NCBI GenBank assembly: GCA_024682255.1
Contig: GCA_024682255.1_4716.1
Length of the DNA stretch: 64,000 bases
Direction: 5' to 3' (one strand)
DNA from: a phage
The position numbers were made by a program, and so were the translations under genes. Below the pieces are notes generated by a model that saw only the letters and a program-made list of their open reading frames with translations, did not search any database and was not told where the DNA came from. The first letter of the stretch is position 1. Each line of letters begins with the position of its first letter. Positions 4,659-53,637 of this stretch are shown here, piece after piece.

Positions 4659-4690
4659 CCCTCTCCCAACCCGTAAGGGAAGGGAGAGGG
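4659..4690 (-). terminator. Conserved 32-nt hairpin element, copy 1
   Basis: CCCTCTCCC-AACCCGTAAGGGAA-GGGAGAGGG; identical copy at 11827-11858, variant at 51905-51936. Confidence 0.6.
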
Positions 4691-4703
4691 AATATTAAAA
4701 TTG

Positions 4704-11826: not shown

Positions 11827-11858
11827 CCCTCTCCCAACCCGTAAGGGAAGGGAGAGGG
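11827..11858. terminator. Conserved 32-nt hairpin element, copy 2, between convergent genes
   Basis: Identical to 4659-4690; flanked by CATAA and CTTATGCTGTTATGCTGTT. Confidence 0.65.
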
Positions 11859-17269: not shown

Positions 17270-20200
17270 TACATAAACTCCTCGATGATGCAAATCCCAT
17301 TAGCACCGCGCCCACCAGGCTTAGCGGTTCCTGAGTAAGAGTTATCGTAAGCAGCACCACCACCCGAACCAGGCGCGAGGCCGTTATGGGCGGTGCCGAC
17401 ACCAGCACGGCCGCCACCGCCCCAATATGACGCACCCCCACATCCACCGGCGGCAAGAGTACCGGCTTGTCCATCGCTACCGTCTCCGCCCGGAATGCGT
17501 ATATCCCCGGTAGTAGGTACGCCCCCATAGCCACCGCCAGTGTTTGTGACAGTTGTTTTTCCTGCGCCTTGCCCGCCGGGAGCAGTTAGCAGGGATGCAA
17601 ATTTACTATCTCCACCCCCGTTCCCATTCGTCGCCCCAGAGCCACCGGAACCACCAGAACCAATTATAACAGAATAACTAGCAGCTGCTACCGTTATAAC
17701 CGAAATTACTGTTCCGCCAGCTCCTCCTCCAGCGCCAAAAAACGTTTCGCTGTTGGAATAAGCCTGACAACCGCCACCGCCACCGCCACCACCGGTTATC
17801 GTTACTCTAATCCGTTTTGTTCCTTGTGTTGGGGTGTACGTCCCTGACGATGTGAAAACACGCATATTCAGTAAACGCCCGACATATCCACTAGAATCGG
17901 CTAAACCAAGATCTTTAGCTGCTAACGTGATATTAGCCGTACCGTCGAAAGGTTTACCGTTAATCGTGCGCGCAGTTTGCAGCTTCGTCGCCGTTGCTGC
18001 GTTCCCTGATGTATTCTGGTTCCCCGCGGCGTTAACACCTGGTAGATTGATGTTCGCACTACCGTCGAACGCGACACCACCGATCGTCCTTGCTGTTTGC
18101 AGTTTTGTCGCCGTGGCGGCATTACCGGTCGTGTCTTGGTTACCGGTGGTGTTTACCCCAGGCAGGTTGATATTTGCCGTTCCGTTAAATGAGACACCAC
18201 CAATCGTCCTTGCCGTTTGCAACCTCGTTGCGGATGCCGCATTCCCCGTGGTGTTTTGGTTACCTGTTGCATTCACACCTGGGATACTATCCTTAGATGT
18301 GTAGATCTGTGCCCATTCCGACCAGTTCGCATCGGTTGAATCACGACGTGAACGTAAATAAGCTGGAGCGTGTGCACCTGAGGTACCTGACCACCCAATG
18401 AGGATTTCGCCTTCGCCGACCGATGAAGCACCTTTAAGATGAACAATGTTGCCGTAGGCTGTAGGGTATCCGTTATTGTACGCTTCATACATCTGGATAC
18501 CCGTGTTGCTGCCCTGGGTCGCATTAGCTAAAGCGGTGACCCGTCCTTTGGAAGCGAGCACGTTAATGCTAAAGCTAATATCGGTTGTACCGTCAAAGGC
18601 GACCCCGTTAATCTTCCGTGCTGTTTGGAGTTTCGTGGCAGTAGCCGCATTACCAGAGGTACTCTGATTACCTGCTTTGTTCACACCCGGTAAATCAATG
18701 TTGGCTGTTCCATCAAAGGACACGCCCCCTATGGTTCTCGCTGTCTGGAGTTTTGTTGCTGAACCAGCGTTTCCGGAAGTGCTTTGATTACCTGCCGCGT
18801 TGACACCTGGTAGGTTAATGCTAGCAGAGCCATCAAAAGAAACTCCGCCGATCGTGATCGGTGTTTTCAATTTCGTGGCTGTCGCGGCGTTACCCGTCGT
18901 ATTCTGATTGCCAGCCGCATTAACGCCTGGTAATGCGATATCGGTCGTACCATCGAACGCAACACCACCGATTTTACGGGCGGTCTGTAGCTTGGTCGCT
19001 GTAGCCGCGTTGCCGCTGGTATTTTGCGTGCCCGCTTCATTTACGCCTGGTAAATCAATGTTCGCAGTACCATCAAAAGAAACACCCCCGATGGTTCTCG
19101 CGGTCTGCAACTTCGTTGCACTTCCTGCGTTTCCGCTGGTGCTTTGATTTCCCGCTGCATTAACACCTGGTAGACTGATGCTGGCTGAACCATCGAAACT
19201 CACACCACCGATCGTAACAGCGGTTTTCAATTTCGTGGCGGTTGCTGCGTTACCGGTTGTATTTTGGTTGCCTGTCGCATTCACGCCAGGTAATGCAATA
19301 TCCGCTGTTCCGTCAAAGGCAACGCCACCGATTTTACGTGCAGTTTGTAGCTTGGTTGCACTAGCAGCGTTACCGCTGGTATTCTGGGTGCCTGCTTTGT
19401 TAACACCGGGGAGATCGATGTTAGCAGAACCATCGAAGCTGACGCCACCTATCGTTCTTGCGGTAGCGAGTTTAGCTGCTGTGGCTGCATTATTACCCAC
19501 TTTCAGCCAATCATCCCATGGACCATCCTGGCCGTTCCATGATGCCGTTAAACTACGTACGTAAATATTGCCGGTACGTACAGTGTAACGTTGCGTTCCA
19601 CCGAATTGCCCGGTTGGGAGCACTTCAATGTAACCTGCGGCGTTTGCTTCAGGGAAATTGTGGGCGATGTCCGCGTTCGTTGTTACTGGTTTAGACCAAA
19701 TACCAACAGACGCTTCGACTGGGCCGAAGGTATTCAGATTTGCGTCTATCGCCATAGCGCCATTAAATTTCAGGTATGTCTCTGGCGATAATCCGATCGT
19801 TTTAGCAAACGCAGCTTTATCTACGATATCACTACCGTTATTCCCTGCTTGCAACGCCGTCTTAGCTGCCTTTATGGTTTCGGTCAATCCAAGATATTGT
19901 AAGATCGCATCAACGCTTCCTTTGTTTAGCAGATTCAGACCTGTTGACGTTACGTTAGTTAGTCCGATTTGGTTCCGTCCAGTAAAATAAGGGAGTTTAT
20001 TCGCTTCTGTTGTTAGGTTAGACCACGCAGTCAACAACGCGTTCAAAGGCTGTTTACCCGCCAACGCATTGGTTACTGTCGTTGCGAAATTAGGATCGTT
20101 CCCTAAAGCTTGAGCCAGCTCATTAAGCGTATTTAGCGCTTCTGGAGACGAGTCGATCAGCGATGCGATAGCGCGCATCACAAATTCCGTGTTGGCAATC

Positions 20201-48955: not shown

Positions 48956-49975
48956 TTACACCGCCACCTTAGCCTTGATAGCCGGATGTGATTGATATCC
49001 GACGAACACGAAGTCTTCGTAACGGTAATCCGTAATACTTTCCGGTTTACGTACGATCGTTAGCTTCGGTAACGGATACGGTTCACGGCTGAGCTGCTCT
49101 TTAACCTGTTCGAAGTGGTTGTGATAGATGTGGCAGTCTCCACCCGTCCACACGAACTCGCCAACATCCATATTCAGCTGTTGGGCAAGCATGTGCGTTA
49201 GCAACGAATATGATGCGATGTTGAACGGTGTTCCGAGTAGCACGTCCTGTGATCTCGCGGTCAACATACACGACAAGGCACGCGTCGGTACGTTATGTGC
49301 ATTCAACCAAAGTTCCGTTTCACTATGTCGTACATCATCCGTAACCCACTGAGTTCTTAGTACGTCGTTACGTTGGACATAATCAACGCGTTCATCGATC
49401 GTGAGTTTGTGGGTATAGAACTGATAGAAACTGTGGCATGCGGGAAGCGCCATATCGTCTAAATCACCTACGTTCCACGCGCTAACGATGATCCGTCGAG
49501 AATCAGGATCTTCTTTAAGCTGGCGCATCACGTTTGCAATCTGATCGTGAGGTTTAACATACAAGAGATGTTTGACCATACCGGCGTCAACAACACCGCA
49601 ATACTCATAGCCGCGTTGCATCAACTCACGAGTACGTTCTGTATCGTGCGGAACAACCACTTTGTAGTCGATCCATTCCCGCCATTGTTTGCCGTAAATT
49701 GGTCCTAGATTCCCTTCTTCGTCAGCCCATTCATTCCAAATACGAACACCGTTATCTTGAAGATAAGCAACGTTTGTGTCACCGTTAAGAAACCAGAGCA
49801 GTTCGTGGATAACGCTCTTAAGGTGAATCTTCTTGGTGGTTACCAGCGGGAATCCTTTCTTCAAGTCAAAACGCATCTGACGTCCGAATACGGAACGGGT
49901 CCCGGTGCCTGTACGATCAGCTTTATCGCGACCGTTATCCATGATGTCTTGCAAAAGGTCCAAATACTGTTTCAT
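48956..49975 (-). CDS. thyA: Thymidylate synthase (ThyA family) with two insertions
   Basis: Motifs [41 protein letters not shown], catalytic Cys in [23 protein letters not shown]; 339 aa versus 264 in E. coli. Confidence 0.9.
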
Positions 49976-50175
49976 TTTAATCCTCTAAGTGTTTCAAGTA
50001 GTTCCTGAAATTTATAACGATATTTAGAATCACGTAACGTGTAACAGCAACCAAGTAACACGTTATACGCGTAATCAACTTGTAAACCACGAACCTTCGG
50101 ATCTGACGAAAGATTCAATTGTACATCATCAAAAATCCACGCTTCAACGTTCCTCTTGTGTTCCTTCGTTAACAT
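49972..50175 (-). CDS. Hypothetical small protein (about 67 aa)
   Basis: ORF 49972-50184; ATG 50175 with GAGGTG RBS; overlaps thyA start by 4 nt. Confidence 0.5.
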
Positions 50176-50306
50176 CGTTTTCACCTCGTCGTAAAAGTAA
50201 ATAGAGTTTTGTCGAGACGCCCTAATTACTTACAACGTCGGTTCCCCCGGCTTCAGAGAATTCTCAAAATCCGTTAGTTTTGATAGACAGGGTAAGACGG
50301 CATAAA

Positions 50307-50327
50307 AGCCTCCCGTAACGGGAGGCT
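50307..50327 (-). terminator. Terminator-like hairpin
   Basis: AGCCTCCCG-TAA-CGGGAGGCT preceded by CATAAA. Confidence 0.55.
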
Positions 50328-50339
50328 CCATTAATCAGT

Positions 50340-50888
50340 TTATTTCACAAGAACAGCGAATTCGAGAACGTAAATATTCTCGTCATCCATCGGATTTGTC
50401 GTGGTATAACCAACGAAACAATAACCCATATCCACGATAAATTCATTAAGTTTATCGATGGCCGATGCCTGGATGCGATCGTCAACAGACAAACAGCATT
50501 TACGGGTTATGTTCCGCCCACGAGGAACGCCAGCTAACACGCACAGGAAATGCACAATCCGGTTATTGGTTGCGAACTGCGCGTAATCATTGTAGCGTTT
50601 AAGGTCTTTCATCGTAGACTCTACCGTCATACGGCGACCGGGCGACACGTACTCAGAATAAGAATAAGCTGTGATTGTACGACGGTCTTCAGTTAAGTAA
50701 GTGTTCCCTTCGGGGTAGTAGTCTACGCCATCGCCATCAGCATCCACCACGGTTACAACAGGTGCACCGTACTCGTTACGATCAAAGTAAACTTTGCTCT
50801 TTTCCGAAATAGGAACGATAGTGCAAGGTTTTGCGTTGTTCTCATCTGGAAGATCGTAACCGCTCATCATTTTCAAAAACATAGACAT
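50340..50888 (-). CDS. Paralog family protein A (182 aa)
   Basis: Homologous along its length to 50975-51508 (shared NNAKP, TITAYSYS, conserved C-terminal half). Confidence 0.65.
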   Translation of the reverse strand: MSMFLKMMSGYDLPDENNAKPCTIVPISEKSKVYFDRNEYGAPVVTVVDADGDGVDYYPEGNTYLTEDRRTITAYSYSEYVSPGRRMTVESTMKDLKRYNDYAQFATNNRIVHFLCVLAGVPRGRNITRKCCLSVDDRIQASAIDKLNEFIVDMGYCFVGYTTTNPMDDENIYVLEFAVLVK

Positions 50889-50974
50889 AATAGAACCTCA
50901 TGATAATAGATAATAGAAATGATAGATAGTACAACAAATTGAGGGGGTATTATCCCACCCCCTCGTAGGGATTA

Positions 50975-51508
50975 CTACTTAACGATCGCGATGATTTTAC
51001 CGGCCGCACCGGCGTAATATGCCGTTAATTCACCAGTAAACAACTCTTGTAAAAGACGATTTACGTGACTAACAAAGTTAGGATTGTCTGATTTTACAAA
51101 CTCGATATTGCGCGTTTGTTTTATATCACGATCGATTAAACGGATTTCTAACAACGCACAAATAAGGCGATCGTCGAGTTTACCACTCGTATCCAACACT
51201 TCCCCATACGTCGTAGCACGGACGTCCGCATACATACGGTCAACATCATCCTTCCCAAAACCACAGGAATAGGCGTACGTTGCGATGGTATTACCGTTGT
51301 CCATCACGTAAACGTTACCGCCCGGGTAATCGATAAATCGTTGATCCTTATCGCCATGAGCGACGAACTCCAGTGTCGGTCTACCCATCGAATCACGGTT
51401 GAATTCAATTGTGGTCAAGCGATCTGGTACCACATGCAACGTAAACGGTTTTGCATTGTTACGATCGCTAGTATCACAGTTAGCCATTACTTTTACAATA
51501 ACACTCAT
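50975..51508 (-). CDS. Paralog family protein B (177 aa)
   Basis: Homologous to 50340-50888. Confidence 0.65.
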   Translation of the reverse strand: MSVIVKVMANCDTSDRNNAKPFTLHVVPDRLTTIEFNRDSMGRPTLEFVAHGDKDQRFIDYPGGNVYVMDNGNTIATYAYSCGFGKDDVDRMYADVRATTYGEVLDTSGKLDDRLICALLEIRLIDRDIKQTRNIEFVKSDNPNFVSHVNRLLQELFTGELTAYYAGAAGKIIAIVK

Positions 51509-51582
51509 GTTTTATTCCTTAGTAGTCCTAGTAGTAGTATTGAGGAATTTCACCTCATTAGATAGTCTAATTTAGTAATGTT

Positions 51583-51915
51583 TTACTGAAACAAGACATT
51601 AAATTCGACGAGATACCCATCGGATCTATCGCCGCGATATCTGTTGCAGAAAACACCGAATTTCATCAAGAACTCGCATAACTCTTCGGCTTTGTATAAC
51701 GGAATACGATTTTCGTCGAGCAGAGGACACTTATGGCTAACCCGCTCCGACGAATCAACGCAACACAAATAAAGAAGGAATCGAACAATAGCTCGGTTCT
51801 TAGTGAAGCTCTCGAATTCACCCGCGGTTCTGAACTCATCGAGGAGCTTTGTCGTTTTCTTCAATCGTTCACGATCAAGCATGTTAACCTCAATACGAAC
51901 ATAACCCTCCTCCAA
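51583..51915 (-). CDS. Paralog family protein C (110 aa; C-terminal domain only)
   Basis: Aligns with C-terminal halves of paralogs A and B (NR.IV.FL..L, C.L.D..RI, Y..EF.VL). Confidence 0.6.
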   Translation of the reverse strand: MEEGYVRIEVNMLDRERLKKTTKLLDEFRTAGEFESFTKNRAIVRFLLYLCCVDSSERVSHKCPLLDENRIPLYKAEELCEFLMKFGVFCNRYRGDRSDGYLVEFNVLFQ

Positions 51916-51936
51916 CCCATCAGGGAAGGAGGAGGG
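51905..51936 (-). terminator. Conserved 32-nt hairpin element, copy 3 (variant)
   Basis: CCCTCCTCC-AACCCATCAGGGAA-GGAGGAGGG with the same CATAA and ATATGCTGTTATTCTGTT flanks as copies 1-2. Confidence 0.6.
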
Positions 51937-51945
51937 AATATGCTG

Positions 51946-52260
51946 TTATTCTGTTTTCGGTGTCGAACCGTTCTTCTTGAAGTCGGATTCGTATTTCACG
52001 TTAGAATCGAGAACCTCACGAACGGTTTTATCTGTACAACCACGGGCGATGTATGCATTAAGATCGTCGCGTAATTTACGCATCGTTGTTTTATCCGCAT
52101 CAGAAATATCTGACTTGGTAAGACGGAATGCAATTGCATCACGAACTTTATTCAGCGTTGCTGGATTATTACGCTGTTCTGCAAATACCGCTTTGATGAA
52201 TGTACCGCTATCTTTCGAAGCGATGGCGGCATCAAGAATTTCAATATGCTTTTCAGACAT
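51946..52260 (-). CDS. Hypothetical protein (104 aa)
   Basis: ORF in minus operon. Confidence 0.55.
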   Translation of the reverse strand: MSEKHIEILDAAIASKDSGTFIKAVFAEQRNNPATLNKVRDAIAFRLTKSDISDADKTTMRKLRDDLNAYIARGCTDKTVREVLDSNVKYESDFKKNGSTPKTE

Positions 52261-52311: not shown

Positions 52312-53637
52312 TCACTTCAGTAGCTTAGACGTCGCCATGCTTCGCGCTAACGCAACGTCATACGCATCCATGATCGCGTCACCGATAGCGGTATGACGGA
52401 TCAACGGAATACCCATGTCTGGATACTCTTTGGTGCCTAAGATGGATACCGGTTTGTCTTGATACGCAGCAATCATCGAACGGATATCCTGAACCTGGTT
52501 ATAACGACAAACTGGCTTAAAGCCCGCTTTACGGAACCAATGCTCTAATTGAGGCCAATCTGTTTCACCGCGAGCAAGATAATAGAAGGTATCTTTACCG
52601 TAGTATTCAGTCATTTTGTCACGAATACTGTTGACGAACGCATTTACTTCGGCGATGGCTTCTTTATAACCCATTGCCTTACAATGTTGAAAACAATAGT
52701 CGCGCGCTTCCTTTGGTGCTTTGGTTTGCCACCATTCTACTGTTGATTCACTGATACGACCGCCGTCAGCGATTTGACCATGAACGTCAGGGAAGATATC
52801 TATACGCGGACCGTTAACAATGGATTCTGGATTAGCCAGATCGAAGAACACGATACCGATTTCCAGCAATACTCCATTCTTTTCCAGACTAAGGTTTTCA
52901 ACATCTAAACAAAATGCAGGCTTCTCTACCGCTAACGGCTCGAACGAATGGTTGCTGGTATCCGATTCGGTTTTAAGTTCGACGACAACCGGATCGGTAT
53001 CCGTAGGTTTCAGTTCTACTACAGCATCATCGAGTCCCGATAACGAAAAATAGTCTTCGAAGAAATCGGGTATCGTCATACCATGCAAATTGATATCGCA
53101 ATCTTCCAACCATTGCTTCAACTGGTGCTCACCGGCATGAATCGCTAAACGACATGGTCCGGAACGATCATCTAGCGCTGCATCGATCCAGAAGAAAGCA
53201 CGTATAAGTAAGTAAGGATTATACTCCGCGATGATTTCTTGGCTAGCCGAGAAATCGTACACCATTAGTTGTATTATTCCCTTACGTGTGTTATACGGAT
53301 CAACTTTCAATCGACGCACTATTTCTTCTACGAATTCCAGCGCACGCGTGTACGATGTGGACCCACCTTGTTCATACGAACATATACCCGTCAAAAGTTC
53401 CTTATAGGACGCATATGGAACCATAGGCGATAATTTGTACGACAGTTCAGTATTGTAATTATCGCATAATTTCTTCGGGGCGATAGCATCCTGTATCGCT
53501 GTAATAAACGCCGGTCCATCAATATCAAACAACCATCCTTGACGCCGGTATGCAGTGTATCGTAATAACGCACCGATAACTGCCTGGGGCGGTGTATATT
53601 CTTTCCCGTTAATTTCAAACAGTAGTTTGCTCATCAT
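52312..53637 (-). CDS. Two-domain protein (441 aa): unknown N-terminal domain fused to DEDDh-type 3'-5' exonuclease domain
   Basis: C-terminal half carries Exo I-like LDVENLSLE and Exo III-like HTAIGDAIMDAYDVA (H.A..DA) motifs. Confidence 0.6.
   Translation of the reverse strand: MMSKLLFEINGKEYTPPQAVIGALLRYTAYRRQGWLFDIDGPAFITAIQDAIAPKKLCDNYNTELSYKLSPMVPYASYKELLTGICSYEQGGSTSYTRALEFVEEIVRRLKVDPYNTRKGIIQLMVYDFSASQEIIAEYNPYLLIRAFFWIDAALDDRSGPCRLAIHAGEHQLKQWLEDCDINLHGMTIPDFFEDYFSLSGLDDAVVELKPTDTDPVVVELKTESDTSNHSFEPLAVEKPAFCLDVENLSLEKNGVLLEIGIVFFDLANPESIVNGPRIDIFPDVHGQIADGGRISESTVEWWQTKAPKEARDYCFQHCKAMGYKEAIAEVNAFVNSIRDKMTEYYGKDTFYYLARGETDWPQLEHWFRKAGFKPVCRYNQVQDIRSMIAAYQDKPVSILGTKEYPDMGIPLIRHTAIGDAIMDAYDVALARSMATSKLLK

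Follow-up and report, generated by a model that had tools for sequence, protein, structure and literature searches.

How does a phage come to carry a row of related genes, one of which corresponds only to the second half of another, and what might their products do? The question arises at positions 50340-51915 of a 64,000-nucleotide (nt) stretch of phage DNA (NCBI GenBank assembly GCA_024682255.1, contig GCA_024682255.1_4716.1), below called the window, where an earlier note had described a tandem family of three paralogs. The three open reading frames (ORFs), here named A, B and C, are present where that note had placed them, all on the minus strand. Positions 50200-52000 match Escherichia phage Goslar (132878-134681) at 91.3% nt identity; judged by this match, the window is that of a Goslar-like phage, Goslar being a nucleus-forming jumbo phage of the Chimalliviridae. 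The three genes stand in tandem and belong to a two-module protein family specific to Goslar-like chimalliviruses, in which A and B carry an N-terminal (N) and a C-terminal (C) module and gene C carries the C module only, closest to that of A:

50340-50888, minus strand: gene A, 182 amino acids (aa), ortholog of Goslar gp143; N domain at about residues 1-82 (50643-50888), C domain at about residues 83-182 (50343-50642)
50975-51508, minus strand: gene B, 177 aa, ortholog of Goslar gp144; N domain at about residues 1-85 (51254-51508), fast-evolving C domain at about residues 86-177 (50978-51253)
51583-51882, minus strand: gene C, 99 aa, ATG at 51882 with GAGG before it; paralog with the C domain only, nearest to that of A

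A search of the six-frame ORFs of the window with phmmer and a hidden Markov model of the N domain found no family members beyond these three. The B protein has a 100% identical match on a 240,846-base-pair (bp) contig of an E. coli assembly.

A family built from two modules

Between A and B, BLASTP finds 37% identity confined to residues 1-82 (E 2e-13), and the Smith-Waterman score of 131 lies far above the mean for shuffled sequences (25.7 +/- 4.9; z-score 21.5). Residues 93-182 of A align to gene C at 26% identity (E 3e-8; shuffle z 12.8), and hhalign relates the C domain of A to C with a probability of 97% (E 5e-11) over 97 columns, thus covering residues 3-99 of C. The earlier note had named shuffling as the control by which its family might fall; for both pairs, none of 2000 shuffles reaches the observed score, and the tandem paralog family survives. 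Together with profile E-values of 1e-10 to 5e-11, this leaves chance a negligible explanation of the similarities.

The family is less uniform than it had been described. A and B were said to be homologous over their length: this holds by sequence for the N-terminal ~80 residues only, as the C-terminal halves yield no local alignment (z -0.6 against shuffles), although their predicted folds agree. Similarly, gene C was said to align to the C-terminal halves of both, which is correct for A and, by sequence, not for B (E 20, shuffle z 1.0). The C-terminal half of B was also compared with a profile pooling every C domain of the A, C and D types, D being a 200-aa fourth member of the family that has both modules and occurs in relatives (A versus D: E 8e-15, residues 1-166). 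The score of 15.8 against 11.0 +/- 2.4 for column-shuffled profiles is equalled by 7 of the 200 shuffles, a colinear alignment that is not significant.

Predicted structures bring the two halves together. The AlphaFold model of A (mean predicted local distance difference test score, pLDDT, 73; C domain ~90) has a beta-rich N domain, with strands between residues 21 and 75, followed by helices (H) and strands (E) at H83-94, H99-106, H109-119, E127-132, H141-153, E157-163 and E173-181. The model of B, built on a deeper alignment (mean pLDDT 86), has seven strands in residues 3-78 and then H86-97, H100-107, H113-123, E131-136, H143-156, E161-166 and E171-176; the order and spacing of the elements are the same in both models, a beta-rich N domain and then H-H-H-E-H-E-E. 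Searched with Foldseek against viral models, the B model finds its best match in Goslar gp143, the two aligning over 188 columns with template modelling (TM) scores of 0.65/0.64 and E 1e-12, whereas matches that share only the N domain with B reach TM ~0.4. Because the predicted fold aligns over its full length with gp143 at TM 0.65, A and B are likely to be divergent two-domain paralogs, the C domain of B being a remote homolog of the others.

It could also be that A and B share the N module only, and that the C half of B is an unrelated domain gained by recombination. This domain swapping would fit the lack of significant similarity between the C halves, seen in the shuffles, in the equalled profile score and in hhalign E-values of 0.04-0.6, and it would fit the N module's promiscuity, as elsewhere this module is fused to many unrelated C-termini. 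However, the models agree in the order and spacing of their elements, the TM score over 188 columns exceeds that of the N-only matches, and the hhalign alignment is colinear and in register, with TRKC.L opposite TRNIEF. Moreover, the C domain of B falls to 39% identity among its own orthologs, and a loss of sequence signal against the paralogs is therefore to be expected. We thus regard a swap as unlikely, while giving it some weight.

The N module comprises ~80 aa, is all-beta and starts at residue 1-6 of the protein in almost all matches; the C module comprises ~95 aa arranged as alpha3-beta-alpha-beta2. When 1.84 billion representative proteins were searched with a profile built from A orthologs, 75 matched at E<=1e-3, almost all of them only at profile positions 1-80. 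The targets are either stand-alone proteins of 75-100 aa or proteins of 160-480 aa with an extra C-terminal part; in the sequences retrieved, these parts have no Pfam match and no obvious resemblance to each other. K6, M8, D15, K20 and G64 are invariant and N65, Y67, G72 and T74 near-invariant (B numbering), within the consensus M..lKMMSGEDl.D...SK ... GN.YvM...GKTIa. The module is present in Erwinia RAY-like chimalliviruses (at the N-terminus of the 379-aa RAY gp198), in Erwinia phage AH06 and Proteus phage 10, by fold in Pseudomonas phages 201phi2-1 and Phabio, and in 45-kb Acinetobacter Obolenskviruses, where it forms a stand-alone gene after the terminase, portal and head-morphogenesis genes (WCHABP1); its range therefore extends beyond nucleus-forming phages. 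All matches found for the C module come from the Goslar clade: the two-domain proteins A, D, P0126 and P0131, and the orthologs of C. Outside this clade, in RAY, WCHABP1 and four metagenomic contigs, the N-module gene is single-copy and no tandem array was seen, in contrast to the locus described here.

Searches of Pfam, PHROGs, NCBIfam and PADLOC with A, B and C returned only PHROGs of unknown function, and Pfam gave nothing above noise at E<=1. In PHROGs 10807, 10337 and 3909, which include Erwinia phage RAY gp198, the first ~80 positions match the N module of A and B at E 2e-7 to 2e-4 (A versus phrog_10807, 2.2e-4; B versus phrog_10807, 3.2e-6, positions 1-84 of 379; B versus phrog_10337, 2.1e-7; N module only), while these families continue in C-terminal parts that bear no relation to the C module of the window family. 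No match to a described anti-defence protein came from Pfam, PADLOC, NCBIfam or PDB searches. The idea that the products act through charge or as DNA mimics was dropped, the predicted isoelectric points of A, B and C (4.9, 5.4 and 7.6) being unremarkable.

Gene C and the hairpins of the locus

The earlier note had given gene C a product of 110 aa (51583-51915). The TTG start at 51915 sits within the arm of a hairpin, and most relatives have AAG in its place. The GAGG Shine-Dalgarno sequence and the ATG that follows it at 51882 are kept in 10 of the 10 lineages checked, and all orthologs have 99 aa, down to 55% identity. Because this start is conserved and the TTG is not, the true product has 99 aa, the form that gene callers likewise yield in public data.

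The annotation of Goslar lacks gene C, whose ortholog lies at 134266-134562 on the minus strand of MK327938. Annotated instead is Goslar_00145 (gp145), an ORF of 228 nt on the opposite strand that overlaps C (134413-134640, plus strand). C is the real gene at 51583-51882: compared with the Goslar translation, its protein is 99% identical and its DNA 96%; four distinct alleles differ by 15, 11 and 62 substitutions at codon positions 1, 2 and 3 when read in the minus-strand frame; and it is homologous to A. gp145 is probably a spurious ORF, and it is absent from the table of Goslar virion proteins found by mass spectrometry.

Could C nevertheless be a decaying, 5'-truncated pseudogene rather than a functional protein made of the C domain only? 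The Goslar annotators did not call it, and some metagenomic relatives carry frameshifted (P0201), fused or deleted (P0202, P0138) versions. Decay is, however, hard to reconcile with a product of exactly 99 aa in 10 lineages with ATG and Shine-Dalgarno sequence kept, with substitutions mostly at third codon positions, with a ratio of nonsynonymous to synonymous divergence (dN/dS) of 0.15, and with a product that spans the whole C domain (hhalign columns 3-99). We consider it very improbable.

Around the three genes, the following features were found:

50301-50328, minus strand: intrinsic terminator after A, 10-bp GC stem then UUUUAU, GGAGCCUCCCGUUACGGGAGGCUUUUAU, -18 kcal/mol, z -2.9
50941-50964, minus strand: hairpin after B, 9-bp GC stem and poor U tail; Goslar annotates a terminator there
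51509-51582, minus strand: intergenic region between C and B, 74 nt, with a weak hairpin at 51542-51556
51905-51936, minus strand: 32-nt hairpin element between the gp146 ortholog and C, -32.3 kcal/mol, z -5.3, no U tract
51946-52260, minus strand: flanking gene upstream of C, ortholog of Goslar gp146, the capsid 'latch' protein

Each gene had been described as bracketed by terminator hairpins, including a copy of the 32-nt element, and this needs to be narrowed. A is followed by a terminator, the sequence of which is unique in the window and at the place of which Goslar annotates one too; B is followed by a hairpin with a poor U tract; and C is divided from B by no more than a weak AU-rich fold (-11.8 kcal/mol), which is not a real terminator. 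The locus has a single 32-nt copy. That its three hairpins are copies of one element was considered and rejected, as each is unique at <=3 mismatches and only 51905-51936 belongs to a repeated family. This family has three copies in the window (51905-51936, ~4664-4695 and 11827-11858), each just downstream of a minus-strand gene; the copy at 11827-11858 is an annotated terminator in Goslar, and in that at 51905-51936 two pairs are changed relative to the other copies, in a compensatory way that keeps the stem. A shared promoter motif upstream of A and B, ACTATCTA, was also dropped, its two occurrences in the window being the chance expectation.

A separate observation concerns the centre of the 32-nt element. 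At the same site in closely related phages (loci L005, L010, L021 and L025), the central 14 nt are inverted (TTCCC-loop-GGGTT versus AACCC-loop-GGGAA), with no change of orientation in the outer arms and flanks, which looks like a flip of the hairpin tip.

Turnover of the array and selection on its members

We typed 18 Goslar-like loci by tblastn, anchoring them on the conserved flanking genes, which include that for thymidylate synthase (ThyA). Array size ranges from four members to remnants only, and the order of members between the latch gene and g70/ThyA is constant:

C-D-B-A-DUF7448: L010/L011, L021, L022; L023 and L026 are truncated and carry C-D-B
C-B-A-DUF7448: L005, L018, L025, L009
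C-B-A: the window, Goslar, L019, L008
One A-like gene and DUF7448: L007
3' fragment of A only: L002, L003/L004, L020

With four, three, one or only remnant copies between retained flanks, the locus is accessory, as the earlier note had supposed. In the loci with remnants only, the fragment of A lies between the latch gene and g70/ThyA, and the flanking genes are kept. L002 lacks the segment corresponding to window positions 51779-50457, the start of C being fused to the end of A in an 81-aa ORF; L003/L004 have the same right-hand junction and a larger deletion. Since these lineages have lost almost all of the array, its genes are dispensable, and the array turns over by deletion.

The spacer between C and B in the window (74 nt) is chimeric: it matches the C-D spacer of L010 in its 5' part and the D-B spacer in its 3' part, with the crossover in a shared TACTAC, and it thus appears to be the deletion scar of D. 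D is present in lineages whose C is only 59% identical to that of the window, and for this reason it is probably ancestral and was deleted in the window lineage. We propose that D was lost by recombination between similar intergenic cassettes at the TACTAC microhomology; if so, the three-gene state would derive from a four-gene C-D-B-A array. Of the modular duplication with domain loss that had been claimed, the two-module paralogs stand, and the direction of loss in C is parsimonious rather than proven: the stand-alone C domain is found only here, beside two-domain paralogs, so that C may well have arisen by loss of the N module.

A further presence/absence cassette at the locus is the DUF7448 gene of 287-294 aa, which lies between A and g70/ThyA in L005, L007, L009, L010, L018, L021, L022 and L025 and is absent from the window (50185-50339) and from Goslar.

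Selection was measured over nine lineages by the Nei-Gojobori method, as dN/dS and as mean synonymous divergence (dS):

N domain of A: dN/dS 0.07, mean dS 0.92
N domain of B: dN/dS 0.05, mean dS 0.78
C domain of A: dN/dS 0.25, mean dS 0.34 (saturated pairs excluded)
C domain of B: dN/dS 0.24, mean dS 0.78
Gene C: dN/dS 0.15, mean dS 0.72
Latch gene (flank): dN/dS 0.09, mean dS 0.25
Thymidylate synthase (flank): dN/dS 0.07, mean dS 0.42

All members are functional and under purifying selection, and the C modules evolve ~4 times faster than the N modules. Orthologs of B have a mean pairwise identity of 93% in the N domain and 68% in the C domain; those of A, 88% and 81%. The members diverge faster than the flanking genes, and the label 'fast-evolving' in the earlier note was apt. 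The dS of most members is 2-3 times that of the flanks, which suggests that old alleles are exchanged at the array.

Several observations concern the neighbouring genes and the rest of the window. The exonuclease gene at 52312-53637 (minus strand), with an Rv2179c-like 3'-5' exoribonuclease domain, is a 441-aa ORF here and has 409 aa in Goslar and relatives; its true start is probably an internal ATG. The thymidylate synthase gene, within 48956-50184 (minus strand), overlaps an upstream 70-aa gene by 4 nt (49972-49975); this 70-aa gene is replaced or diverged (55-65% identity) in L010 and L025, and in L010/L011 an additional 109-aa gene is inserted before ThyA. Positions 17930-19477 hold a direct-repeat family of seven copies at 61-74% identity, six at 120-nt spacing and one 648 nt upstream, which probably encode a repeated 40-aa unit within a large gene.

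Expression and possible function of the products

For Goslar, RNA sequencing at 30 min with and without knock-down of chimallin (ChmA) has been published (bioRxiv 10.1101/2023.09.20.558163). In the portion of that study drawn on here, transcripts of gp143 (log2 fold change +0.11/+0.22/-0.10) and gp144 (+0.14/+0.15/-0.05) are unchanged in the knock-down, while those of late genes drop by 4 to 7 log2 units and those of major capsid, tail and baseplate genes by 3 to 7; according to its authors, the knock-down expresses the early programme only. Goslar gp143 and gp144 are transcribed in this early, nucleus-independent programme. Both proteins were also detected in purified virions by label-free mass spectrometry, gp143 with 3 peptides (~7 copies per virion) and gp144 with 2 peptides (~2 copies), in a preparation that also held thymidylate synthase (~20), the neighbouring exonuclease (~59), PhuZ (~170) and chimallin (~126) (bioRxiv 10.64898/2026.04.21.720040). 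Because non-structural enzymes occur in the same preparation, detection at this low level is not specific; the peptides prove that gp143 and gp144 are translated, not that they are packaged. In the literature on gp143 and gp144, the main-text mentions checked refer to PhiKZ proteins, and the Goslar data stand in supplementary tables only.

The neighbour gp146 has been identified by cryo-EM as a capsid 'latch' protein that stabilises the penton (bioRxiv 10.64898/2026.04.21.720040). In the same portion of the knock-down data its transcript is not reduced (log2 fold change +0.1 to +0.4), unlike those of the major capsid, tail and baseplate genes, a pattern that is unexpected of a capsid protein, unless it arises from read-through or from reads that are unstranded.

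We propose that the array is a two-module accessory array, reduced in the window by the loss of D and expressed early, whose products act in the host cytoplasm in counter-defence or host takeover. In such a system, a shared activity or partner would come from the conserved N module and specificity from the fast-evolving C module, while the product of gene C would act as a free C module. Taken as a whole, this seems to us rather probable. Phage clusters of early accessory and counter-defence genes are, as a general class, early, dispensable and polymorphic for presence and absence, and are made of cassettes with their own terminators. The array resembles such clusters in the first three respects and, as far as the terminator after A and the hairpin after B go, in the last; it differs in that the family has no sequence or fold match to a described anti-defence protein. 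A further likeness is to the hyperplastic regions and internal proteins of T4, where small dispensable genes also form a variable cluster, a conserved N-terminus is joined to a divergent remainder, and turnover occurs by recombination between similar intergenic cassettes.

Several points weigh against the proposal. The host-directed function is an inference, and being early, dispensable and variable fits counter-defence genes but equally fits accessory genes of many other kinds; no dN/dS value rises above 1, and an arms race thus leaves no direct sign; the C domain of B is tied to the other C domains by predicted structures alone; and the transcript data come from one time point, with and without ChmA, and may be unstranded.

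A competing account of the function concerns the virion: gp143 and gp144 might be low-copy proteins that are packaged or injected, the conserved N module serving as a signal for incorporation into the capsid by which variable C-terminal cargo is loaded, as with T4 internal proteins or MuF-fused cargo. The ~7 and ~2 copies in purified virions are compatible with this, as are the place of the stand-alone N-domain gene of WCHABP1 after terminase, portal and head-morphogenesis genes, the capsid latch gene next to the array, and the combination of a conserved N-terminus with polymorphic C-termini. The published Goslar data, however, show neither virion enrichment nor late expression of gp143 and gp144: the same preparation holds several non-structural proteins in higher copy number, and in the portion of the knock-down data used here the two transcripts stay steady, unlike those of the listed virion-protein genes. 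Gene C, moreover, has no N module. In T4 internal proteins, the shared N-terminal capsid-targeting sequence is a short peptide that is cleaved. The shared part here is a folded 80-aa domain, and no protease site was identified. Packaging is thus not supported, and we hold it to be improbable.

The DUF7941 multigene family of chimalliviruses, comprising Goslar gp22/gp23 and eight others (bioRxiv 10.64898/2026.04.21.720040), offers an instructive comparison in the same phage. It also consists of paralogs with a common N-terminal module, some without a C-terminal domain and others with varied ones; A, B and C, however, have no match to DUF7941 in Pfam. gp22 and gp23 are present at ~580 and ~2140 copies per virion, and their transcripts change by log2 -3.5 to -5.4 in the ChmA knock-down, whereas gp143 and gp144 are expressed early and, in virions, lie close to the limit of detection.

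For the family, two uncharacterised domains are now defined, with no match to a known family or fold and no description in a curated library; of these, the N module is spread over unrelated phage groups and is absent from Pfam. For Goslar, a model nucleus-forming phage, the annotation is corrected: it gains the 99-aa gene C, and gp145 becomes doubtful. The array is a well-defined but ordinary accessory multigene family, such as large phages commonly carry, and nothing shown of its biology so far is unusual for an accessory region of a phage. More tentatively, and with lower probability than the early host-directed function proposed above, the N module may be a widespread phage adaptor that binds, for instance, a small ligand or a single conserved partner from host or phage, and through which interchangeable C-terminal effectors are deployed early. 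If this were true, C-D-B-A would be an arsenal of diversifying effectors aimed at host immunity, in which C would serve as a free effector or regulatory module. The array, being small, dispensable, expressed early and variable in copy number, offers sensible candidates for screens of host range or counter-defence in Goslar, for which genetic tools such as CRISPRi-ART exist.

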